From assembly GCA_041651575.1 (NCBI GenBank), contig JBAZJB010000001.1, positions 266,609-330,608 on the forward strand: 64,000 nt of DNA, written 5' to 3'. The position numbers were made by a program, and so were the translations under genes. The DNA comes from Candidatus Nanoarchaeia archaeon. Lineage in GTDB: Archaea; Nanobdellota; Nanobdellia; SCGC-AAA011-G17; JAFCDX01. This document shows positions 12,829-44,247 of the stretch, piece by piece. The notes beneath the pieces were generated by a model that had not been told where the DNA came from, did not search any database, and worked only from the letters and a program-made list of their open reading frames with translations. How positions within the stretch are numbered: the stretch's first letter is position 1; every line of letters begins with the position of its first letter.

Positions 12829-13383
12829 TTATTCTTGAACTATTCCAGCCAAGTATCCTTCTGTAGATATAGGATAAGTAGTATATGGAGTTAAAACATT
12901 TCCTCTCATTCTTGATTTTTCATAAACTTTAGCTTCTAAAAGTATTGGAGTATCTACAAAATCACCCATATCTGGGCAAGATACTACAATTATTTTTTCT
13001 TGATTGAAATCAATTCCATCTTCTACTAAACCATTTGTAACTTGTTTACAACCATTATCTCCTACATTAGGCAATTCTATTTTTGTTATAGAAGCAATTC
13101 CAGATCTATCGTGTCTTATTTTTAATTCAATTGCATTACTTGTTATTTTTTTACCTAAGCAAGTAAATTCTCTATCAAATTTACAATCTTCTGCTCCTGT
13201 AAAAGATCTTACTTCTGCTGTATCTTTATCACATATTTTATCTTGATTTTTATCTAAACAACAATCTCCACCCATATAAGTATAAGGAGCATTACAACTA
13301 TCCATAACAACATTACCAGTAATACAACCCGATATAAAAAATACAGTTAATAGAATTAATATGATTGAAAGCCCTTTTTTCAT
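12829..13383 (-). CDS. secreted lipoprotein (lipobox-like ISGC), paralog of element gene 35517..36260
   Basis: Signal peptide plus SGC; shares CN.PY....G.(D/E)CCLD.N....CDKD with ORF 35517. Confidence 0.45.
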   Translation of the reverse strand: MKKGLSIILILLTVFFISGCITGNVVMDSCNAPYTYMGGDCCLDKNQDKICDKDTAEVRSFTGAEDCKFDREFTCLGKKITSNAIELKIRHDRSGIASITKIELPNVGDNGCKQVTNGLVEDGIDFNQEKIIVVSCPDMGDFVDTPILLEAKVYEKSRMRGNVLTPYTTYPISTEGYLAGIVQE

Positions 13384-26686: not shown

Positions 26687-27040
26687 TTAGTTTAAATATT
26701 CTTTCTTTATAAATTTCATTAAATCCGGTCTAATTCTAACAATTAGCACCTTTTCTTTGATAAGATTATAAGCTTCATCAAAATTCATTCCATTTTTAAT
26801 TAAATAAACTAATGCAACAGCATTACTTCTGCTCATCCCCCCAATGCAAATAATAACAGCTTTCTTCTTTTTCTTGATTATATTTTCAACATGCCTAACT
26901 TTAGATTGGAATTGCCCTTTATTAATTTGTTTTCCATCTATCAAATCTCTAACTATCTCAATCTCTACATTCTTCAATTTCTTTATTTTCTCAAATTCCC
27001 TTAATGGAGCTGTTCCTAGATTTTTTGTTATCCAATACAT
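26687..27040 (-). CDS. dual-specificity / protein-tyrosine phosphatase (CX5R)
   Basis: 117 aa; VIICIGGMSRSNAVALVYL is the HCxxGxxRS P-loop. Confidence 0.6.
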   Translation of the reverse strand: MYWITKNLGTAPLREFEKIKKLKNVEIEIVRDLIDGKQINKGQFQSKVRHVENIIKKKKKAVIICIGGMSRSNAVALVYLIKNGMNFDEAYNLIKEKVLIVRIRPDLMKFIKKEYLN

Positions 27041-28682: not shown

Positions 28683-29282
28683 ATGAATAAAAACTTAATA
28701 ATTTTGGTAGGGATATTTTTAATTCTCCCAATATTTGTATCTGCTGGAATACCTCATTCAGTTTATGGATTTTTACCTAGTTCTGATGGAACAACAATAA
28801 CAGCTTATGTAGAAAGTAGACCATCGGAGATTCTTACAGATAATATTGGTATAGGTGGAAATTCGAAAGTTAATGAAGGATGGTTAATTGATATAGGAAA
28901 TTTTAATACCCCCTGGAAAATTGGTGATATTTTAATTATAGAATTTCCTAATAAAAATATAAATTTAATTTTAAATGACGCTGGAGCTCAAGAAGTAAAA
29001 TATACAAGTTCAACAAAAGCTTCTATCACTACCATAACTAATGATTCGGATAAAGAAAGTATAAGTAACATAAATCCTATTGTAGGAAATAAAACTATAA
29101 CCGAACCAAAGAAAACATTACAACAAAAAACCATAAATTCTTCAAATAAAACAGAACTTAATAGTACTTTATCTGAGAATGAAAATAACAATAAAACAAA
29201 AAACTTTATAAAGTGGGGAATCTTTTTATTTCTAATAATTATAGTAGTGGGGGTTATATTTATAAGAAAGTTTAGAAAATGA
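28683..29282 (+). CDS. secreted surface protein with shared N-domain and C-terminal TM anchor
   Basis: 199 aa; signal peptide; AGIPHSVYGF...AYVESRPSEILTD domain shared with ORFs 31483 and 32142; C-terminal hydrophobic anchor plus KFRK. Confidence 0.45.
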   Translation: MNKNLIILVGIFLILPIFVSAGIPHSVYGFLPSSDGTTITAYVESRPSEILTDNIGIGGNSKVNEGWLIDIGNFNTPWKIGDILIIEFPNKNINLILNDAGAQEVKYTSSTKASITTITNDSDKESISNINPIVGNKTITEPKKTLQQKTINSSNKTELNSTLSENENNNKTKNFIKWGIFLFLIIIVVGVIFIRKFRK

Positions 29283-31498
29283 AATTATATAATTATTTAA
29301 TATTAATATTTTTATCTTTATTTATAATATCTACTTTTGTATATGCCTTATCTGAATCTTTTTTAATAGAACAAAGCGGGGATAAATTTAATTTAGGTCA
29401 AACTATTTATGGTTTAACGGGTGGAATTAGTGATACTTACCTTCCAATTTTACTTGCAAATCAAGTTTGGGTAGATAGTCAAGGAATAAATACTGGAACT
29501 TATAATTATCAACAATTTTTAGATTTCTATGCGGTAACTAATGTTAGTACAGGAAAAGGTACTGCTGGTTATGTATATCAACAAGACTCAAATAGAGATA
29601 ATAAACCTGTAGATGATTACCTATTTTTTGATAACATCGATACTTATCAAAAATGGGTGTCCTATTGGAATGGGACTGCTGTGGTATCTGGTTATATAAA
29701 TTATACTTCTTACGCATTTGCATGGAATTATACCTTAGATATACTTGGTTCTGAAGTAAAGGTAAAAGATGCATCCGATATTGAAGGTACGGTTTTAACT
29801 ATTTTAGGAACAAATTATACCATTGCAGATGCTACTGTCAGTAATACATCATATGGTATGCTTGATAAGTTAATTTTACTTGGAGGAAATGAAATCATCA
29901 TCTTTGAGGGAGAAACTAAAAATGGAGTTACTGTTACAGGCGTTGATGTTGCTGAAACAAAATGTATAATTCAATATGATAGTACACCTTATATTATAAA
30001 TTTAGGGGAAATTCAAACAATGCCAGACGGTTTAATGATTGGGGTTTTAGACGTGACGTATATGGGAGCAGGTTTAGATATTTGTGAATTAGCTCTCGGA
30101 GCAAAGAAAATTATATTAGAACAAAATAAAGAAGTAGAAGTTAATGGAATTAGAATAGTTAATACTACTGTTAGTTTGAATGATGGAACAACAGGATTTA
30201 ATCAATTATCTATAGTTTATATTCCTACTAACAAAACATATTTGAAAGCAGGAGAATCTTTGAAAGACCCAGTTTTTAATGCATTTGCAATAACTTTAGA
30301 TAAAATTGTTGAATCCACAGAAGAAATTAAAATAGACCCACAAGGAGATAAAGTAAAATTAACTGTTAAAAATAAATTGGGAAATCCACTTAATAATTTT
30401 ACCATATGTCATTTAAATGGAACAAAAGTTTCAGGTGCAAGAAGTTTTGTATGGGGGGATGTTAATAATCCGTTTATTGCTTGGGAAGGTGCCGGGGTAA
30501 ATATTACTAATAATACTATGAATGTAGCAAGATTAGACCAAATGACGGGAATTAGATTCTTAGCAGAAGGGAATAAAGAATCACATATTTATGAAATTAT
30601 AAACATAGATACTTCCGCAAACGAAACAGATATTAAAGAACTTGATACAGGATACATTTATTATAATCTTCCTTATTATGAAGGGCGAGTTACAACTTTT
30701 AGTGATATAAACTATAATATACAATTAGCTTTTGACCAAGATACAAGTACCAAAATGCAATGGATTAATTTTACACATCTTTCAGATGCATATGGTATGA
30801 ACTATTGGACAAAGAATGGTGGAAATATTACTTTTGGTAATACTTCTTCTATGTTAAATCAAAATGCAAATGCTGTTGATAATTGTTCAATTAAATTTGG
30901 TGAAGTTGATGTATCCAAAGAATCAGGAATTCATTTAAAACTTTTGAACTTTACTTTCTTATGGGATTCAACAGACGATGAAATTGAATTTGCAAAATAT
31001 TCTGTTGATGGTTCAGCACAAAGTAAAATTGGCTCAGGTTATTTTGTTCAAAAATATAATAATGATAGTTACACAAAAACCACAAGAACCGAATATGGTA
31101 CTAAAGTTGATATAAATCTAAAGAACGATGGTGAAGCAATAATCTACTATCCAGATGAAGCTACATATGCAGAAGTTAAAATATATGCTTTAGAAAATCC
31201 TCTAACTCCAATTGGCGGTAGCGGGGGGGGCGGTGGTGGTTCGGGTGTAGTTGAATTAATAAAATCTACAAATAAAACTGGAGTTAATGCAATTTCTCTT
31301 CCTCCAAATACAGGATTAGTAAATGCTGAAGATATTTGTGATAGTATAACTTATTCAGATGCTGTAACAAAATGGGACCCTTATACTCAAATGTATAGTG
31401 GACATCCTTGTGGAACACCTGTTAATAATTTTAATTTAGAATATGCTGTTGGGTATTTTGTAAGTATTACTCAAAATTCAACATGGAGTTTACAATGA
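29279..31498 (+). CDS. large secreted surface (glyco)protein with poly-Gly linker and shared C-terminal domain
   Basis: 739 aa; signal peptide; many N-x-S/T sequons; GGSGGGGGGSG linker; C-terminal domain shared with ORF 31483. Confidence 0.5.
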   Translation: MKLYNYLILIFLSLFIISTFVYALSESFLIEQSGDKFNLGQTIYGLTGGISDTYLPILLANQVWVDSQGINTGTYNYQQFLDFYAVTNVSTGKGTAGYVYQQDSNRDNKPVDDYLFFDNIDTYQKWVSYWNGTAVVSGYINYTSYAFAWNYTLDILGSEVKVKDASDIEGTVLTILGTNYTIADATVSNTSYGMLDKLILLGGNEIIIFEGETKNGVTVTGVDVAETKCIIQYDSTPYIINLGEIQTMPDGLMIGVLDVTYMGAGLDICELALGAKKIILEQNKEVEVNGIRIVNTTVSLNDGTTGFNQLSIVYIPTNKTYLKAGESLKDPVFNAFAITLDKIVESTEEIKIDPQGDKVKLTVKNKLGNPLNNFTICHLNGTKVSGARSFVWGDVNNPFIAWEGAGVNITNNTMNVARLDQMTGIRFLAEGNKESHIYEIINIDTSANETDIKELDTGYIYYNLPYYEGRVTTFSDINYNIQLAFDQDTSTKMQWINFTHLSDAYGMNYWTKNGGNITFGNTSSMLNQNANAVDNCSIKFGEVDVSKESGIHLKLLNFTFLWDSTDDEIEFAKYSVDGSAQSKIGSGYFVQKYNNDSYTKTTRTEYGTKVDINLKNDGEAIIYYPDEATYAEVKIYALENPLTPIGGSGGGGGGSGVVELIKSTNKTGVNAISLPPNTGLVNAEDICDSITYSDAVTKWDPYTQMYSGHPCGTPVNNFNLEYAVGYFVSITQNSTWSLQ
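31223..31230 (+). repeat. G8 homopolymer within the Gly-linker coding region of ORF 29279..31498
   Basis: gcggggggggcgg read directly; genome is about 30% GC, so this run is conspicuous. Confidence 0.8.
31364..31435 (+). repeat. 72-bp perfect direct repeat (copy A) shared by surface-protein genes 29279 and 31483
   Basis: Identical to 31987..32058 (gtaacaaaatgggaccc...aataattttaat). Confidence 0.85.
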
Positions 31499-32121
31499 AA
31501 AATAAAATAAAAATCATTCAAATTTTTTGTTTGTTAATGTTATTAAGTTTACCTCTTATATCAGCAGGTACGCCTCACATTAATTGGGGTTATGTAAATG
31601 ATGCTGTAGATGGAACATTAGCAAATGGGGCTAATGTTACGGCTTATATAGAAACAAGACCTACAGAAATATTAACAGATATTGTAGGAGTTACTGGTAA
31701 TTCTGGAATATCAAATGCTTGGTTAATTGATACTGGTAATTTTCCAACTGCTTGGTCAGCAGGGAATAACTTAATAATACAAATTGATAAAAATGGTTAC
31801 AAATCAAACACAAATATAATATTAGATAACTCTGGCTCTCAACAAAGTGTTAATATGACTCTTTCAAAAATTTTAATATTAGTTAAACCTATCAATAAAA
31901 CTGGAGTTAATGCTATATCTTTATTATGGAATAGCCAATTAATTACTGCCCAGGATATTTGTAATGATGTTCAATATTCAGATGCAGTAACAAAATGGGA
32001 CCCTTATACTCAAATGTATAGTGGACATCCTTGTGGAACACCTGTTAATAATTTTAATATAGAAAAGGGAGTAGCTTATTTTGTAAGTGTTACTCAAAAT
32101 TCAACTTGGGTGATGAAATAA
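31483..32121 (+). CDS. secreted protein made of the shared N-domain plus the shared C-domain (minimal family member)
   Basis: 212 aa; N-domain AGTPHINWGY...AYIETRPTEILTD...NFPTAWSAGNNLII; C-domain NKTGVNAISL...TKWDPYTQMYSGHPCGTPVNNFN. Confidence 0.5.
   Translation: MEFTMKNKIKIIQIFCLLMLLSLPLISAGTPHINWGYVNDAVDGTLANGANVTAYIETRPTEILTDIVGVTGNSGISNAWLIDTGNFPTAWSAGNNLIIQIDKNGYKSNTNIILDNSGSQQSVNMTLSKILILVKPINKTGVNAISLLWNSQLITAQDICNDVQYSDAVTKWDPYTQMYSGHPCGTPVNNFNIEKGVAYFVSVTQNSTWVMK
31987..32058 (+). repeat. 72-bp perfect direct repeat (copy B)
   Basis: See copy A. Confidence 0.85.
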
Positions 32122-32141
32122 AAAGAGTTATATATTATTAA

Positions 32142-34832
32142 ATGGACAATATAAAAATGAAAAATAAATTTAAAATAGGATTTTTATCAATTCTCTTAGT
32201 TTTATCTTTAATCTCGGTTAGTAATTTGGTTTCAGCAGGAACACCACATACAGTGTATGGATATGTATTTGATGCTACTGACGGAACATTAGCAAATGGA
32301 GCTACTATTACAGCGTATATTGAATCAAGACCTTCTGAGACATTAACTGGTACAGTGGATGCAACAAATTGGTGGGATATTGATGTAGGTAATTTTCCAA
32401 CTGCTTGGTCAGCAGGAAATAATTTAATAATTAAAGTTGATAAAAGTGGGCATAAAGATACTACAAATATAATTCTTGATACAAGCGGTGCACAACAAGC
32501 TTATGATATGACTTTACTTCCACAATACGATTTAGATTTATCACCAACTACTCAAACGATTAATACGGTTCCAGGAGTAAATTATTATGAATATTATATT
32601 AATATAACTAATATGGGATATGCAAATGATACTTTTCTTGTATATTTGAATGGAGAATATCAGTATACAACTGATGTACTTCCTTCTTATTGGTATACAG
32701 AAGATATGTGGTATTCTAATACTACAGACACTTTAGCAGGTACATATATAGATAATATAACGGTAGTATCTCAACATGATTCAACTAAAAGAAAAACTTT
32801 TTTACTTACAATAATTGTTAATCCAATATATGGCATAGATTTATCTCCAAAAACACAAAGTATTAGTGTATATCAAGGAACAGATTTTGAAGTTAGTTAT
32901 AATGTTACTAATATTGGGAATATAAATGATACTTATTTAGTTTACTTAAATGGAAAATATAATTATAGTATTGATGAACTTCCTTCTTATTGGTCTTCAG
33001 AAGAGTTTTGGGATTATACTGCAGATGAACCTATAGGAACAGTATATACAGACCTATTTTTTGTAATATCAGAACATAATCCAAATGTAAATGATACTTT
33101 TGCATTAACTGTAACAGTTATTGCTCCTCCCTGTGTTCCTAATTGGATTTTAAATTCTACTTGGACAACCTGTAATCTACTTGATTCACAATCTAAAAAT
33201 TATTATGATTCAAATAGTTGTGGAAATGAAACAGGAAAGCCTACAGATATAACACAATCATGTGATTTTTGTACTCCTAATATAATTGCTATAGCACCCG
33301 GAAGCTGTTCAATAAATGATACAGCTACCACAATTTTTGATGACTCAAATAATTGTTATGCTCAAACTGGATTGGAAAGCGACCAAGTTCCAAATCCAAT
33401 TGTAAATTCTTGTGACTATTGTACTCCTTCCATAAGTTCAAGTAATTCAACTTGTGGAACAAATGATTTATTCACAGAAACATTTACAGATTCAAATGGT
33501 TGTTATGCTCAAACAGGACTTATTTTAGATAATGTTCCTTTATCACTACAATATACTTGTGATTATTGTACTCCAAATATCCAAACCACAACAGAAAACT
33601 GTACTACAAGTGATACTTACACTACCACATTCACAGATTTAAATGGTTGTTTTGGTGTAACTGGATTAGTTTTAGACGCTGTTTCTGTACCAACAATAAA
33701 TTCATGTGATTATTGTACTCCATTAATAACCTCCACTAATTCAACATGTCAACCAAATAATACTTCAACAGAAACATTTACAGATTCAAATGGTTGTTAT
33801 GGTTTAACAAATTTAAACGCGGATAAAATTCCAAATCCAATAATATATGGTTGTGTTTATGTAGCCCCTTCTTGTTCTCCCGATAATTGGACATTAAATA
33901 CCACTTGGTCAAGTTGTAATGCAAATGATTTACAATACCAAGTTTATTATGACCCAGATAATTGTAATAATAACACAGGAAAACCTACCGATGTAAGTCA
34001 AGCTTGTGATTTTTGTACTCCAAGTATATTTGATACAAATTCTACTTGTCAATTAAATGATTTATTTACACAATCATTCTCCGATAATAATAATTGTTTT
34101 GCTCAAACAAGTCTTGTAGCAGACAAAGTTCCAAATAGTAATAGTTATTCTTGTGATTATTGTACTCCTTTAGTTGTATTAACAAATTCAAGTTGTAGTA
34201 TTAATGATACCTTTACAGAAAGTTTTACAGATTCAAATGGTTGTTATGCTCAAACAAATTTGGCTTCAGATATAGTAATACCTGCTCCAACATTATATGC
34301 TTGTGATTTCTGTAATCCCTCATTAACATCCACTAATTCAACATGTCAACCAACCAATACTTTAACAGAAATCTTTGCAGATTCAAATGGGTGTTTTGCA
34401 TTAACTAATTTAGTTTCTGATGATATCTTTATTCCTAATCAAATAGTATATAATTGTACTTATGTTGCTCCAGTAACTTCTTCTGGTGGCGGAGGAGGCG
34501 GTGGTGGAGGCGGAGGTTCAGGTAAACCAACCTGTGTTGAAAAAGATTATAATTTCACAGATTGGTCAGAATGTTTAGTAGATGGAAAATCAACAAGAAC
34601 TTATATTTTGAATAATAAAAAATGTATTAAAAATACAAAAACATATGATGTAACTTTATACTTAGAAAAAGATTGTTATTATAAGGAAGAAAAACCAGTA
34701 CAAGAATCAATAGAAGAAGATAGTGGTATGACTGGAATTACTGGTGGGGCAGTTGTAGATGGAAATGGTTTATTTAGTTCAATAGGAGATTTCTTCTCAG
34801 GTATTTGGAATTGGTTTAAAAATTTATTTTAA
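32142..34832 (+). CDS. giant secreted surface protein: shared N-domain, duplicated ~100-aa domain, about 12 tandem Cys-rich ~45-aa repeats (CDYCTP...), poly-Gly linker
   Basis: 896 aa; repeat units SCDYCTP(S/N)I...NSTC...FTDSNGCYAQT(G/N)L; linker SSGGGGGGGGGGGSG. Confidence 0.5.
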   Translation: MDNIKMKNKFKIGFLSILLVLSLISVSNLVSAGTPHTVYGYVFDATDGTLANGATITAYIESRPSETLTGTVDATNWWDIDVGNFPTAWSAGNNLIIKVDKSGHKDTTNIILDTSGAQQAYDMTLLPQYDLDLSPTTQTINTVPGVNYYEYYINITNMGYANDTFLVYLNGEYQYTTDVLPSYWYTEDMWYSNTTDTLAGTYIDNITVVSQHDSTKRKTFLLTIIVNPIYGIDLSPKTQSISVYQGTDFEVSYNVTNIGNINDTYLVYLNGKYNYSIDELPSYWSSEEFWDYTADEPIGTVYTDLFFVISEHNPNVNDTFALTVTVIAPPCVPNWILNSTWTTCNLLDSQSKNYYDSNSCGNETGKPTDITQSCDFCTPNIIAIAPGSCSINDTATTIFDDSNNCYAQTGLESDQVPNPIVNSCDYCTPSISSSNSTCGTNDLFTETFTDSNGCYAQTGLILDNVPLSLQYTCDYCTPNIQTTTENCTTSDTYTTTFTDLNGCFGVTGLVLDAVSVPTINSCDYCTPLITSTNSTCQPNNTSTETFTDSNGCYGLTNLNADKIPNPIIYGCVYVAPSCSPDNWTLNTTWSSCNANDLQYQVYYDPDNCNNNTGKPTDVSQACDFCTPSIFDTNSTCQLNDLFTQSFSDNNNCFAQTSLVADKVPNSNSYSCDYCTPLVVLTNSSCSINDTFTESFTDSNGCYAQTNLASDIVIPAPTLYACDFCNPSLTSTNSTCQPTNTLTEIFADSNGCFALTNLVSDDIFIPNQIVYNCTYVAPVTSSGGGGGGGGGGGSGKPTCVEKDYNFTDWSECLVDGKSTRTYILNNKKCIKNTKTYDVTLYLEKDCYYKEEKPVQESIEEDSGMTGITGGAVVDGNGLFSSIGDFFSGIWNWFKNLF

Positions 34833-35157: not shown

Positions 35158-35520
35158 ATGAAAATTAAATTAATAATCGGATTACTTATAATTTCTATAT
35201 TTTTAATAAGTGGATGTAATCAAGAAAATATTAATCCTGCTCCCTTGAATTGGCAAGAATTATTAGATAATTGTCAAAAAAATTTAGATGAATGTAAAAT
35301 GCTTGGAATTCCAAAAATAACAGAATTTACTATTAATACTGAAGATTTAATAGGAAAAAAAATTGACTTTGATATATGTAAAATAGAATGGGTGAAACAA
35401 AACCCAGATTTACCTTTACCTAGTCAATGTTCTATTCAAGTTTGGGGGAACCAATTTCAAAAAAATCCAGATAAATTAATAAATTTAAAAGTTTTTTGTG
35501 ATTGTTGGTATAAAGAATGA
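35158..35520 (+). CDS. small lipoprotein (LISGC lipobox-like)
   Basis: 120 aa. Confidence 0.4.
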   Translation: MKIKLIIGLLIISIFLISGCNQENINPAPLNWQELLDNCQKNLDECKMLGIPKITEFTINTEDLIGKKIDFDICKIEWVKQNPDLPLPSQCSIQVWGNQFQKNPDKLINLKVFCDCWYKE

Positions 35521-36260
35521 AAATGAAAATAATATTGGGGACATTAGTACTTTGTTTATTTCTTATAAGTGGATGTAATAATGGAATAATTTGTAACAAA
35601 CCTTATATTCAAGTAGGAACTGAGTGTTGTTTAGACCAAAATAGTAATTCTATTTGTGATAAAGATGAACCAGAAAAAAATGAAGAAAAGAATTATTCTA
35701 CAATAAATTCTGGTATAATATTACCAGAAGGAAAATGTATTATTAAAGGTTCAGTTGCTCCTACTGTTATAGATGTAACCTGCACCCAAAATAGTGATTG
35801 TTACGAATCTGCTCGAGGTATAGGCACTACTGATATGAGTTTAGTTTATTGTTCTGGAGCCACACAATCAGAAGGAATACAAACTTTTAAAGAATGTAAA
35901 GAGTATGATAAAGAAAAAGGTTTATGGACAGGAACAGTGTTATGTAAAGATAAACAAGATTGTTATGATTTCTATCAAAAAGTGAACCAATATTATAGTG
36001 ATGTTCCAATTCCAGAAACAATGGATTGTAAAGAGACATCATTTAAAAAACTTCCTGATACAAACAATAATTTTATAAGTTGTAATACTAACATAGATTG
36101 TATTGAAAAAATTATGCCTGGAATTAATTCACCAGAAATACCCTCAGAATTACGTTCTTTATATTTAGAATATTATGGTATAAGATGTAATAATAATTTT
36201 TGTGAAGTAAATGAAGGACTCTTTACTCAGTGGGGAAGTAGTTTTGTTAGTAAAATATAA
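35517..36260 (+). CDS. Cys-rich lipoprotein, paralog of chromosomal 12829..13383
   Basis: 247 aa; LISGCNNGIICNKPYIQVGTECCLDQNSNSICDKD. Confidence 0.45.
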   Translation: MKMKIILGTLVLCLFLISGCNNGIICNKPYIQVGTECCLDQNSNSICDKDEPEKNEEKNYSTINSGIILPEGKCIIKGSVAPTVIDVTCTQNSDCYESARGIGTTDMSLVYCSGATQSEGIQTFKECKEYDKEKGLWTGTVLCKDKQDCYDFYQKVNQYYSDVPIPETMDCKETSFKKLPDTNNNFISCNTNIDCIEKIMPGINSPEIPSELRSLYLEYYGIRCNNNFCEVNEGLFTQWGSSFVSKI

Positions 36261-36285: not shown

Positions 36286-36936
36286 TTAAATAAAAATTTT
36301 ATCTAACTCCACTTTTTCTTTTTCTATACCAATATGCGTATAAATTTGTGTAGCCCTGTTATCTGTATGCCCAAGCATTTTTCCAATAGCCAATAAGTCC
36401 ATACCTTTATTATAAAGATATGTTGCATACGTATGTCTTAATGTATGGAACCTATAATTGAATACTTTTCTGCCCTTACTATCAAATCCGATTGAGGTTC
36501 TTATACCTGCCTTTTCTAAATGACTATTAAATTTTTTTCTCATCACAGAAATGTTATATTGTTTATCTAATCTCAAACGCATAGGGAATAGATATTTACT
36601 ACCTCCTATATACTGCAACCATTTATCCAAAAGTGGAATTAATGGTTTTGGTATTGCTACATTTCTATCTTTACCATATCCTTGAACAGACCTATTTGGA
36701 TTTTTAGAATCTTTTATAGATAAAACTCGATTATATATATCGATGTCTTCTACTTTTAATTTACATAATTCTCCAATTCTTAATCCACAAAAAAACCCTA
36801 ATAAATAAGCCATCATATAAAGAGGTTCATTTACCACCCCAAATAATCTTTTTAATTCTCTTATTTCAAATACTTTTGGTAGTTTATATGGTGATTTCGC
36901 TTTGTCTCCTCTAAACATTTTCGTCAAGCCTCCCAA
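36286..36936 (-). CDS. int: tyrosine recombinase/integrase, catalytic domain
   Basis: 216 aa; GLRIGEL (Arg), HTLRHTYAT (HxxR), TQIYTH (Tyr nucleophile). Confidence 0.7.
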   Translation of the reverse strand: MGGLTKMFRGDKAKSPYKLPKVFEIRELKRLFGVVNEPLYMMAYLLGFFCGLRIGELCKLKVEDIDIYNRVLSIKDSKNPNRSVQGYGKDRNVAIPKPLIPLLDKWLQYIGGSKYLFPMRLRLDKQYNISVMRKKFNSHLEKAGIRTSIGFDSKGRKVFNYRFHTLRHTYATYLYNKGMDLLAIGKMLGHTDNRATQIYTHIGIEKEKVELDKIFI

Positions 36937-39160: not shown

Positions 39161-40628
39161 ATTCCTGTTGATCCTGCAGGAGAATGCTGCTATTGGGATT
39201 CGATTAAGCCATGCAAGTCAGGGGTAGCAATACACCGGCATAAGGCTCAGTAACACGTCGATAATCTAACCTTAAGTCTAGGATAACCTTGGGAAACTGA
39301 GACTAAAACTGGATAAAAGAAAGATACTGGAATGTTTTTTCTTTGAAAGGTAACGCTTAAGGATGAGTTGGCGGCTGATTAGGCTGTTGGTGAAGTAAAG
39401 GCTCACCAAACCAAAGATCAGTAGGGGCCCTGAGAGGGGTAGCCCCGAGAAGGGTACTGAGATACTGACCCTAGCCCTAAGGGGTGCAGCAGGCGCGAAA
39501 ACTTTACAATGCGCGAAAGCGTGATAAGGGAATCCCAAGTGCTTATCCATTGGATAGGCTTTTGCCAAGTGTAAAAAGCTTGGAGAATAAGTGGTGGGCA
39601 AGACTGGTGCCAGCCGCCGCGGTAACACCAGCGTCCACGAGTGGCATTCACTATTATTGGGTCTAAAGCATTCGTAGTTGGTTTGTCAAGTCTTTTGTGA
39701 AATTGTTGGACTTAATTCAACAGCGTGCAAGAGATACTAACAAGCTCGAGACCGGGAGGGGACAAGAGTATTTCAGGGGGAGCGGTAAAATGTTATAATC
39801 CTTGAAAGACTTCCAGTGGCGAAGGCGCTTGTCCAGAACGGTTCTGACAATGAGGAATGAAAGCTAGGGGCGCAAAGCGGATTAGATACCCGCGTAGTCC
39901 TAGCCGTAAACGCTGCGAGCTATGTGTTGCATATTCCTAGAGAATGTGCAGTGCCTAAGTGAAGACGTTAAGCTCGCTACCTGGGAATTACGGTCGCAAG
40001 GCTGAAACTTAAAGGAATAGGCGGGGGCTCACACAAGGAGTGGAGTGTGCGGTTCAATTGGATTCCACCCCGGAAATCTTACCAAGATCGACGGCAGAAT
40101 GAAGGTCAGATTAAAGGTTTTACCTAACAAGCCGAGAGGTATTGCATGGCCGTCGTCAGCTCGTGCCGTAAGGTGTCCAGTTAAGTCTGGCAACGAGCAA
40201 GACCCACATGTATATTTGCTAACATTTCAGTAATGAAGAATGAGCACAATATATGGACTGCCTGTGAAAACAGGAGGAAGGCGTGGGCAACGATAGGTCC
40301 GTATGATCTGAATATCTTGGGCTACACGCGCGCAACAATGGTAGGGACAATGGGTCACAACTCCGAGAGGAGAAGTTAATCCTCAAAACCCTATCTTAGT
40401 CTAGATCGAGCATTGAAACTCATGCTCGTGACAACGGAATTCCTAGTAATCGTTCATCACTATTGAACGGTGAATATGTCCCTGAGCCTTGCACTCACCG
40501 CCCGTCAAACCATTCGAGTAGGGTTCAAATGAGGTCTGTTTTTTAGAATAGAACAAATTTGGATTCAATAAGAAGGGTTAAGTCGTCACAAGGTATCTGT
40601 AGGGGAACCTGCAGATGGATCACCTCCT
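39161..40628 (+). rRNA. rrs: 16S rRNA (archaeal)
   Basis: 5' attcctgttgatcctgcagg; internal gtgccagccgccgcggtaa; 3' ggatcacctcct; flanked by a complementary processing stem (39091..39117 with 40665..40688). Confidence 0.9.
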
Positions 40629-40824: not shown

Positions 40825-40920
40825 GACGGGTCCACATTTAAGTATTTATTTATGAGGATCCATAACATAATTGTTTGGGTTTGATAGTTAATATATCATA
40901 TTAACTGTGCATAGGATTTG

Positions 40921-43806
40921 GAATACACTATTAGGTGGAAGACTAGGTTCAAAGTTCGAAGAAGGACGTGGCAAGCTACGATATGCTCTAGGGAGACGCA
41001 TGCAGTCTTAGAACTAGAGATTTCCTAATTAGATTCTATCTCTTCGGAGAAATCAGAAATGATAGGTTACGCGGAGAATTGAAGCGTCTTAGTATCCGCA
41101 GGAAAAGAAATCAATTCGAGATGCTGTTAGTATCAGCGAGAGAAAACAGCAGAGAGCAAACTGAATCCTACTGGAAACAGCAAGGAAATGTGGTGTTGAA
41201 GACTCATTTTTAGTCTTAACTGAGAATACAAAGTTTTCTGGAAAGAAACACTGTAAAGGGTGATAGTCCCGTAGTATTTAATCAGAAGATGTATGAGTAT
41301 CTTGAGTAAGGTCTATCGGAATTTAGGCCTGAATTTGGGAGACATTTACTTCCAACTCTAAATATTGCTTTGAAACCGATAGCGAATAGTACCGTGAGGG
41401 AACGTTGAAAAGAACTCGTAATAGAGAGTGAAAAGAATCTGAAACCTAATAGTTATAGCATGATGCTGCTCTTAGGAGTTGCATCGTACGTTTCGAATAA
41501 CGGGCCAGGGAGTTTACTTAAGTAGCAAGGTTAATTTGAAAAAAGAAACCGAAGCGAAAGCGAGATCCCGCAGTTCACGAGGGGAAAAGTATGAAAATGC
41601 TTTAAGTTACTTAGGTATGACCCGAAACCGATCGATCTAATCCAGGGCAAGGCGAAGTTTCTGTAAAAGGAAATGGAGGCCTGAAGAGGTTCTGTGAGAA
41701 AGCGTTCTTCTGACTCTGGATTAGGAGTGAAATGCCAATCGAGACCGGTAATAGCTGGTTCCTGTCGAATTTGATCTGAGTCAAGTCTCAACAGAGGAAG
41801 CTTAAATGGTAAAGATCCTGATTTGAGGTTTTGGCTAGGAAACTAGTCGGCCTCTTGTCAAACTAAGAACGTTTAAGTTCTGTAGAAGTTGGGAAACGGG
41901 GTTGTGGGGTAAGCTCGCAATCCAACAGGGGAACAACCCAAGCCAACAGTTAAGGTCCCAAAATATCAATTAAGTGTTAACGGGTGAAAGGTGTATACTA
42001 TCTCAGACAGAAGGGAGGTAGGCTTAGAAGCAGCCATCCTTTAAAGAAAGCGTAATAGCTCACCTTTCAAGATAGTGTGCCCTGAAAATGGACGGGGCTA
42101 AATTGATTACCGATACTGTTGAAATCTGAAAAGATATTGGTAGACAGGCGTTTTTCTTGGATAGAAGTATTTTCGTAAGAAGATATGGACCAAGTAAAAT
42201 TGCGAATCCTGGCGGTAGTACGGAGCAACACAATGTTAGAATCATTGGTATCGTAAGGGTAAGGGTTTCTCAGCAATGCAGTTCAGCTGAGAGTTAGTTG
42301 ATCCTAATCACTACATAATTTGAAGAGTGAAAAAGGGAAAAAGGTTAAAATTCCTTTACTATCTAAGTACATTCGGCAACGAAATTTTAATTTTTGACAC
42401 TTTGGGATAGACCAACATTTTTAATCTGAAATGTCAATCAAAATAAATTGCAGGAGTATCGTAATGATGAGAATGCAATTAAATTTGAGATGAGTGGACA
42501 TTTGTTCATTTGGTTAATTTCTAGAGTCCATGAAAAGGAAATTAAAAGGATCTTAGATAATCATACCCAGAACCAGCACAGGTACCCTAGGTGAGAAACC
42601 TAAGATATGAGGGAAGAATCGAGTTAAGGGAACTCGGCAAATTAGTCCCATGCCTTCGGTATAAGGGATTCCTGCGATTGTATTTGTACGAATGCAATTA
42701 CAGGATGCAATAACAAGGGCGGTCCGACTGTTTAACAAAAACATAGCTTTCCGCTACTCTGTAAAGATTAGTATGGAAGGTGAAGTCTGCCCAGTGCGAG
42801 TATCCGAACATTCCTTCCAAGGAAACTAAGGACTCGTAAACGGCGGGAATAACTATAATTCTCTTAAGGTAGCGTAATACCTTGTCGTTTCAATGACGAC
42901 TTGCATGAATGGCGTAACGAGATTGTCACTGTCCCTAACTCGAATCCCCCGAACACTATATTCAGGTGCAAAGTCCTGAGACCTCCAGTGGGAAGCAAAG
43001 ACCCCGTGAAGCTTCACTATAGTCTGTTATTGTAGTGTGAAATTTTATGTGCAGTGTAGGTGGTAGCTGCTAAGACTCAGACGCTAGTTTGAGTATAGGC
43101 GAAATATGAGACACCACTCTTAAAATTTTATATTGCTAACTTCTGAAAGGAAGGACAGTAGCTGATGGATAGTTTGGCTGGGGCGGCATGCTCTTGAAAC
43201 GGTATCAAGAGCACCCAAAGGTCAGCTCATTTGGTTTAGAAATCCAAAGTAGAGTGTAAATGCAAAAGCTGGCTTAACTGTACTCTGAACAATAAAGGGT
43301 GCAGGAAGGAAACTTTGGTTTAGTGAACCCCTATGCTTCGTTTATGGGAGCTAGGGCTAATAGAAAAGCTACTCCGGGGATAACTGAGTTGTCGCGCCTG
43401 AGAGCTCATATCGACGGCGCGGTTTGCTACGACGATGTCGGCTCGCCTTATCCTGGCTGTGCAGAAGCAGCCAAGGGTGGGGGTGTTCACCCATTAAAAA
43501 GGCTCGTGAGCTGGGTTCAATACGTTGCGAAACAGTATGTTCGATATCTAGTGGAGGTGTTCGTGTCTGAGTGGAAAGATCATTTAGTACGAGAGGAACG
43601 GTGGTCTGGGGCCTCTGGTGTATCTGTTATCTGATAAGGTAGGCAGAGCAGCTACGCCCCTTGGGATAAGAACTGAAAGCATCTAAGTTCGAAGCCCTCC
43701 GCGAAAAGAGACACACATAAAATGCTCATAGAAGATGAGCTTGATAGGATCGAGGTGTAAGCATCAAGGTAACGAGATGTTCAGCCTGCGGTTACTAACA
43801 TTTTTT
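40921..43806 (+). rRNA. rrl: 23S rRNA (ends approximate)
   Basis: gaagaaggacgtggcaagctacgata near the 5' end; conserved 23S blocks throughout (e.g. gacccgaaacc-like, GTPase-centre and sarcin-ricin regions); flanking processing stem 40906..40919 with 43812..43825. Confidence 0.85.
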
Positions 43807-43916
43807 TCCAAAAATCCTATGCACATTTATTTTTTATTTCTATAAATTTTTCCAAATCCTAAATTTTAATTTCTTAAAACATTAAATTTATATATAGCTA
43901 TTGCAGTATACATTAT

Positions 43917-44247
43917 GTAGGTAAGATAGCTAACTATCGCTTGCAAAAGTGAGGAAAGTCCGTCCACTAAACTTTTGATAAAAATCAAAAGATAATATCG
44001 GTTGCTTGTCTTGACACAAGTTCCAGAAATGGAAGGCAACTGCTCAGAAACGGAATGTCCTTTAGCTGTTATAAAAATGTGGCTGTGAAATTTCTCGTGA
44101 GAGAGATGAGTTAACCAGCTGAATAGGTTAAAGGGAACATTGAAACGACAGACCCTATCAGTGCAAGTCTGTAAAGACGCTTAGTAGAATGTTAGCACAA
44201 TCTTTCCAAATGGAGATTGACAAAAGACGGCTTATTTCTTACCTACA
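43917..44247 (+). ncRNA. rnpB: RNase P RNA (archaeal type A-like)
   Basis: P1 stem gtaggtaaga/tcttacctac; CR-I gaggaaagtccg; CR-V acaaaagacggcttat; about 331 nt. Confidence 0.7.

Follow-up and report, generated by a model that had tools for sequence, protein, structure and literature searches.

The locus and the repeat array

In this work we analysed a stretch of 64,000 nucleotides from contig JBAZJB010000001.1 of a Candidatus Nanoarchaeia archaeon, the whole of which we call the window, and within it the open reading frame (ORF) at 32142..34832 on the + strand, which encodes a presumed surface protein of 896 amino acids (aa). As the original prediction had stated, this ORF carries a regular array of four-Cys units with a CTP motif. 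We find that the array consists of nine contiguous copies of a module, and that the module belongs to a family which has no entry in Pfam, NCBIfam or the PDB.

The public gene call begins at Met6 (nt 32157) and gives a protein of 891 aa. From Met6 on the target is identical to NCBI MFA5175941.1, 'hypothetical protein WC413_01610 [Candidatus Nanoarchaeia archaeon]', and on the basis of this match the host organism is a DPANN archaeon of the class Nanoarchaeia. Archaeal 16S rRNA, 23S rRNA and RNase P RNA all lie inside the window, which has a low GC content (about 27%). The opposite strand of the target region contains no ORF of at least 80 aa. The features of the target are the following:

32142..34832, +, gene for a predicted secreted multidomain protein, 896 aa, from the ORF listing
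32142..32237, +, N-terminal signal-like hydrophobic segment, aa 1-32, read from the sequence, ending in LSLISVSNLVSA and followed by GTPH
32238..32516, +, N-terminal domain, aa 33-125, a paralogue of the N-terminal part of ORF 31483-32121 upstream, with 60% identity over 126 aa
32517..33128, +, two repeats of ~100 aa, aa 126-228 and 229-329, seen as a DNA repeat with 300-nt spacing and 70% identity
33129..33266, +, unit 1, a Trp-containing 'head', aa 330-375, Cys 331/344/360/374, 38.3 bits
33267..33416, +, unit 2, aa 376-425, 51.7 bits
33417..33563, +, unit 3, aa 426-474, 52.2 bits
33564..33710, +, unit 4, aa 475-523, 39.0 bits
33711..33857, +, unit 5, aa 524-572, terminal in block 1 and followed by CVYVAP, 45.4 bits
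33870..34010, +, unit 6, the second 'head', aa 577-623, 20.6 bits
34011..34157, +, unit 7, aa 624-672, 52.5 bits
34158..34307, +, unit 8, aa 673-722, the single unit used for modelling, 62.9 bits
34308..34460, +, unit 9, aa 723-773, terminal in block 2 and followed by CTYVAP, 45.5 bits
34479..34523, +, flexible linker SS-G11-SG, aa 780-794, read from the sequence
34530..34679, +, four-Cys segment past the Gly11 linker, aa 797-846, Cys 798/811/828/845, placed by alignment in Cys register, with a W-S-x-C motif
34680..34829, +, C-terminal tail, an acidic linker and then GITGGAVVDGNGLFSSIGDFFSGIWNWFKNLF, moderately hydrophobic or amphipathic

The target has 40 Cys in total, and all of them fall in ten blocks of four. 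The motif C[DN][YF]C[TN]P occurs exactly seven times, at aa 374, 424, 473, 522, 622, 671 and 721, with 49-aa spacing in runs of four and three. Before each run stands one of the two Trp-containing 'head' variants (aa 331-374 and 578-622), and each block is closed by a lone Cys in C[VT]YVAP (Cys aa 571 and 772). This makes nine contiguous four-Cys units, seven canonical and two heads, in the order [head+4][head+3] over aa 330-773 (nt 33129-34460). The original prediction had counted about twelve repeats with a ~45-aa period. We count nine, with a period of 49 aa or 147 nt that is shortened to 46 aa in the heads. In the span of 33240-34450 proposed at that time, the start misses the first unit. 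Within a unit the Cys follow each other as a (the Cys of 'CTP'), b ('NSTC'), c ('NGC') and d (the first Cys of the next 'CDYC'). The best register for the self-contained unit runs from Cys a to Cys d, because the first unit of each block is without the upstream Cys of the CxxC and the blocks end in a lone closing Cys. The CxxC straddles the unit junctions, and two residues join one unit to the next. The bit scores listed above were obtained with a hidden Markov model (HMM) built from 350 family units of other proteins, with the target excluded. This HMM detects nine domains in the target at 20.6-62.9 bits, and the best of 200 shuffles of the region reached 8.2 bits.

The DNA identity between the copies of the array is 60-82%, and the duplications are therefore old and diverged. 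Units 1 and 6 have 72-76% DNA identity at 744-nt spacing, and the pairwise unit matrix couples u1 with u6, u3 with u8 and u5 with u9. This pairing indicates an old duplication of a block made of a head and about four further units. A recent or unstable tandem expansion is ruled out by the copy identities of at most 82%, together with Tandem Repeats Finder, which reports nothing on the array except the Gly codons.

Both the poly-Gly linker and the Cys-containing C-terminal module that had been noted earlier are present. The segment past the linker has its Cys in the same order as the units and with similar spacing (aa 798-845), and it aligns with the nine units in Cys register, so that it is a candidate for a very divergent tenth unit. 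As a proven tenth unit it was rejected, since the target-free HMM gives it 2.0 bits, within the shuffle noise, and a search returned no homologues for it. The segment ('FTDWSECLVDGKSTRTY') also resembles the six-Cys 'C-x-P-x-W-x-C-x-x-W-S-x-C...Q-x-R-x-C' module at aa 636-680 of homologue P0001, which likewise comes after a Gly/Ser linker and ahead of a C-terminal anchor. It may accordingly be a distinct membrane-proximal module. Apart from the target, none of the ORFs in the window has the four-Cys module.

In the N-terminal signal-like segment, Kyte-Doolittle windows above 1.6 occur at aa 3-12 of the 891-aa form, and cleavage of this segment would be expected after LSLISVSNLVSA. Only three homologues were returned for the N-terminal 303 aa, and one of them is the neighbouring gene. 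Two sub-threshold matches were found for aa 126-329, one with Pfam CARDB (PF07705; E 0.39, 11.4 bits, cut-off 22.7) and the other with NCBIfam choice_anch_T (E 3.8e-4, 19.7 bits, cut-off 70). The two ~100-aa repeats are thus weakly like CARDB or choice-of-anchor-T domains, with a presumed β-sandwich fold. The idea of a surface protein, which goes back to the original prediction, agrees with the N-terminal signal-like segment; at the other end, the C-terminus is without a classical transmembrane (TM) helix (maximum 19-residue Kyte-Doolittle mean 0.89).

Conservation, distribution and predicted fold of the module

The unit had been described as belonging to no recognised repeat family, and our searches agree with this. 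No match was found for the target repeats in Pfam-A or NCBIfam, or in Pfam for the repeats of ten homologues at E ≤ 0.01 and of 68 family members at E ≤ 1e-5, and these 68 have no Pfam domain family in common. The profile that we call A1, made from an alignment of 42 units, has nothing better than E 6.9 among PDB sequences. Foldseek, which had been suggested as a check on the repeat, was run against the PDB with the unit models and returned nothing significant, the best E being 0.089 (properdin). Structures of thrombospondin type 1 repeats (TSR) are recurrent among these weak matches, together with many unrelated β-proteins. The module has no similarity to any carbohydrate-binding module (CBM) or lectin family. 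PF11617, the MopE motif, does not match the target, and in a few homologues it is found only on other regions. A description of the module was not found in the literature on cysteine-rich, disulfide, adhesin, thrombospondin or surface proteins of DPANN archaea or Woesearchaeota.

When A1 was run against 1.84 billion cluster representatives, it matched 459 proteins at E ≤ 1e-3, 173 at E ≤ 1e-10 and 48 at E ≤ 1e-30. The named family members are all 'hypothetical protein'. A search with the repeat region returned 28 proteins, which come from Woesearchaeota, one metagenome-assembled genome labelled Patescibacteria and unlabelled metagenomes. We also used a degenerate DNA pattern for CD[YF]CTPNW on contigs from one genome per species, an approach that samples only units with the exact motif. 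It gave 25 loci. The 22 archaeal ones all have the module (2-17 units) and are labelled Woese-, Nano-, Micr-, Aenigmat- or Nanohalo-archaeota, 'archaeon' and, in one case, 'Methanosarcinales'. The three bacterial loci were rejected as chance matches without the module; about four chance matches are expected from the information content of the pattern. In this sampling the family is restricted to archaea, nearly all of them DPANN-labelled. The Methanosarcinales label belongs to homologue P0031, a protein of 5427 aa with at least 17 units on locus L022 (CAYMBN010000001.1, contig labelled 'uncultured Methanosarcinales archaeon'; the 8-kb locus has 33% GC). A mistake in binning or taxonomy could explain this label; alternatively, the module may also occur outside DPANN.

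The copy number is usually 2-4 in the 172 retrieved members, with a range of 1-17. With 9-10 copies (10 with the A1 HMM) the target stands in the top few percent of the family. The repeat periods of family members form two groups, one at 46 and the other at 49-51 residues. Across 360 distinct family units the four Cys columns (2, 13, 29 and 49) are 98-100% conserved, and the other conserved columns are as follows:

column 6, Trp, 84%
column 23, Tyr/Phe, 91%
column 25, Asp, 91%
column 27, Asn, 86%
column 35, Leu, 81%
column 38, Asp, 88%

The nine units of the target have the features by which the family is recognised, namely Cys 2/13/29/49, D25, N27, L35, D38 and the tandem C-x-x-C joins. The seven canonical target units have Ile, Val or Leu in place of the family Trp6. 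This replacement argues for column 6 as a position of the structural core, which would not be one that stacks on a ligand.

The number of Cys per unit is four in 304 family units and six in 48, and hence even in 352 of the 360. The extra Cys are always paired, either at columns 30 and 39 (37 units) or as two inserted Cys (11 units). An even and paired Cys content is a signature of disulfides, of which each unit would have two, both intramolecular. We favour disulfides over metal sites because the Cys columns are conserved and the extra Cys come in pairs. The pairing is likely to be a-c and b-d, since the strand geometry deduced from the model would bring a near c and b near d.

The AlphaFold2 models are of high confidence. 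That of three units (aa 619-778) has a mean predicted local distance difference test score (pLDDT) of 87.9, and that of the single unit 90.5. In order, a modelled unit contains a β-strand of five residues, a β-strand of eight, a short helix that starts from Cys c, a 3-10 turn at 'SD' and a β-strand of four before Cys d. The strand-strand-short helix-strand pattern is identical in every modelled unit. The Thr/Asn-rich stretches that had been taken for spacers between the units form, in the model, the β-strands of the folded unit itself.

An N-terminal hydrophobic signal is present in 125 of the 158 complete members, and 66 of these also have a C-terminal TM segment. The module is combined with a wide range of partner domains: Peptidase_C1 (papain-like), S8 (subtilisin), GH113, CBM96, Laminin_G_3 (ConA-like lectin), RCC1 and other propellers, dockerin, DUF2334 and TSP type-3. 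These combinations show a portable, apparently extracellular module that is promiscuously fused. We also observed sub-types of the module, in homologues P0029, P0033 and P0037. These are a 6-Cys form with the extra pair at columns 30 and 39, a form with an extra inserted Cys pair, and a long form of ~60-70 aa with W-x-x-W...Q-x-R motifs. The sub-types alternate inside single arrays, and RCC1 propellers interrupt some arrays.

The many N-x-S/T sequons reported for the target are present, although barely above what its composition predicts. There are 25 against 18.5±3.6 in shuffles, and 96 of 2000 shuffles reach 25; inside the repeats 16 were found and 12.6±2.9 expected, which is not significant. 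We therefore do not regard the sequons of the target as strongly enriched. In the family as a whole the sequons are position-specific, with one at column 10 in 48% of units and one at column 44 in 53%, and to judge from these positions the module is probably N-glycosylated.

Other genes in the window

The target is the last of three genes on the same strand, and further features lie on either side of this secreted-protein cluster:

26687-27040, -, small dual-specificity phosphatase-like ORF (DSPc, E 3.8e-10), upstream of the cluster
29279..32121, +, two upstream genes of 739 aa and 212 aa, with domains common to each other and the target
35158-35520 and 35517-36260, +, two overlapping small ORFs with lipobox-like 'LISGCN' N-termini
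36286-36936, -, short tyrosine recombinase of the phage-integrase family, 215 aa (E 7e-27), between the cluster and the rRNA operon
39161-40628, +, 16S rRNA
40912-43817, +, 23S rRNA
43920-44243, +, RNase P RNA, only ~100 nt downstream of the 23S rRNA

The trio at 29279-34832 is a domain mosaic. The 212-aa ORF (31483-32121) joins the signal and N-terminal domain of the target, with the identity given above, to the C-terminal domain of the 739-aa ORF, a two-Cys domain of ~85 aa that is 69% identical over 85 aa between the two upstream proteins. In the 739-aa ORF a GGSGGGGGGSG linker precedes this domain. We also observed a motif, [ILMF]-T-G-x(1,2)-[AV]-[VI], that adjoins hydrophobic segments. 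It is found in the C-terminal part of the target ('GITGGAVVDG', aa 866-873, 34737-34760), directly past the N-terminal TM in many family members ('ITGFVVYE', 'GITGHAIV'; homologues P0001, P0004, P0007 and P0017) and in the window ORF 12829-13383 on the - strand ('CITGNVVMD'). The motif may be a processing or sorting signal. Downstream of the target, ORF 35517-36260 has 18 Cys in 247 aa, and neither it nor ORF 35158-35520 has a significant Pfam match or a match to the four-Cys module. A spacer tRNA or a 5S rRNA was not detected by ARAGORN or Rfam in the rRNA operon, which runs from 16S to 23S.

Proposed role and relation to known modules

From these results we infer a rod-like and glycosylated stalk at the cell surface. 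With a probability of roughly 0.55, the units form, in secreted proteins of DPANN archaea, a rigid and disulfide-stapled stalk that is probably N-glycosylated. Each module of ~50 residues would be a three-stranded antiparallel β-meander with a short helix and two intramolecular disulfides. The meander would be entered at one pole and left at the opposite one, and because entry and exit would lie at opposite ends the modules should line up one behind the other as a stiff rod. Our estimate, which is not taken from coordinates, is a length of roughly 2.5-3 nm for each unit and of about 25 nm for the array of nine. Such a protease-resistant, glycosylated stalk would display the N-terminal β-sandwich domains at a distance from the cell, and its cell-proximal end would be that of the Gly11 linker and the C-terminal tail.

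There are several observations that weigh against a stalk. The three-unit model has a predicted template modelling score (pTM) of 0.47, so that AlphaFold leaves the orientation between units unfixed, and the disulfide pairing and the end-to-end geometry that we propose are deduced from the DSSP string only. About 20 of the 50 columns are conserved, and the acidic and amide set D17, D25, N27 and D38 could form a Ca2+ or ligand site; this counts against a pure spacer, because a spacer would not obviously need such a site. The target has no recognisable membrane anchor and could be released rather than attached to the cell, and its C-terminal 103 aa are an orphan for which a homologue search found nothing. 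In most homologues the array lies mid-protein, with ~300 aa on each side, and does not adjoin an anchor. The column-44 sequon is missing in the canonical units of the target, where the overall sequon excess is marginal. Finally, with one homologue labelled Patescibacteria, the restriction to archaea is not absolute.

The units might instead themselves be the adhesive element, as a multivalent lectin-like or Ca2+-dependent array that binds the host envelope or polymers. We regard this as less likely than a stalk. Many of the conserved columns are polar or aromatic (W6, Y/F23, D25, N27 and D38, at the frequencies listed above), the partners of the module include lectin-like, CBM and dockerin domains, and the number of copies in the target is among the highest in a family that usually has 2-4. 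The module is moreover found almost only in DPANN lineages, whose members, archaea with very small genomes, are generally believed to live attached to host cells. However, the Trp is aliphatic in seven of the nine target units, which fits the core better than the stacking of sugars, and the heads attached to the module include very different catalytic domains (proteases and glycosidases), as would be expected of a generic spacer. The absence of similarity to the CBM and lectin families also speaks against adhesive units. A further proposal is a DPANN-specific host-recognition element, in which a Ca2+- or glycan-dependent adhesive repeat would, through its head and canonical forms and its varying number of copies, set which host envelope is bound, and in which the trio at 29279-34832 would be a cassette for shuffling surface specificity. 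This we find doubtful.

It is very unlikely that the Cys are metal ligands (Zn, Fe-S or Cu) around the CxxC of a metal-binding or redox protein. There is a CxxC at every unit junction, and some family members also hold the MopE 'putative metal-binding motif'. But each junction has a single CxxC, which is divided between two units, the block-first units (aa 331 and 578) are without its first Cys, and the lone Cys at the block ends (aa 571 and 772) leaves the site incomplete, whereas the units from a to d are always complete. The strictly paired extra Cys and the nearly universal even count, the secretion signals of these proteins and the lack of a conserved His or other ligand column all point away from metal binding. 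A very divergent TSR (including the pleiotrophin-like type) or EGF-like module is similarly improbable, as neither TSP_1 nor an EGF-family Pfam match was found in the target at E ≤ 1, or in 78 homologues at the thresholds used there (10 at E ≤ 0.01 and 68 at E ≤ 1e-5), and hhalign gives the unit profile a probability of 0.55% against a TSR profile made of six sequences.

The module now has exact boundaries, a profile (A1) and a distribution, and this in a group in which most secreted and surface proteins are unannotated. Several hundred 'hypothetical' proteins could be annotated as secreted multidomain proteins. The module is also a small and tractable target for structural biology. If the units are adhesive, these proteins would be candidates for the host-attachment machinery.

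On present evidence the module forms an undescribed family within a familiar class of domains, the small disulfide-rich extracellular modules found in tandem, and holds no mechanistic surprise. The TSR (PF00090, including the TSR-like domains of pleiotrophin and midkine) is alike in its ~50-60 residues and its tandem arrays in secreted or surface proteins, and its small, elongated, three-stranded antiparallel layout stapled by disulfides and its glycosylation resemble what is predicted for the module. A Trp near the N-terminus is conserved in most members of the module family, which is also TSR-like, and the longer variants in homologues have W-x-x-W ... Q-x-R-like motifs. TSRs differ in having six conserved Cys and a layered WxxW(xxW)/RxR core, whereas the module has four invariant Cys and no conserved Arg column, and the canonical units of the target are without any Trp. 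The short helix of the modelled unit is a further difference, as TSRs have none.

EGF-like and calcium-binding EGF (cbEGF) domains are comparable as small disulfide-rich extracellular modules that form rod-like arrays with very short linkers, as the four-Cys units would. The conserved D-x-N-x-C-[YF] stretch of the module is loosely similar to the cbEGF Ca2+ consensus. EGF domains, in contrast, have six Cys in a 1-3, 2-4, 5-6 pattern, and the module has four with a different predicted secondary structure. The MopE-type repeats (PF11617) are short, Cys-rich and secreted, and in some members they share a protein with the module, but their C-D-x-x-D-N-D-C-D-G type of pattern is unlike that of the module. 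In the role proposed here, the closest likeness is with the Ig-like and CARDB β-sandwich stalk repeats, which are tandem, portable spacers between heads and cell, and of which the target carries two weakly CARDB-like examples upstream of its four-Cys array. Those repeats have ~100 residues and 7-9 strands and are usually without Cys, whereas the module is half that size and would depend on its disulfides.

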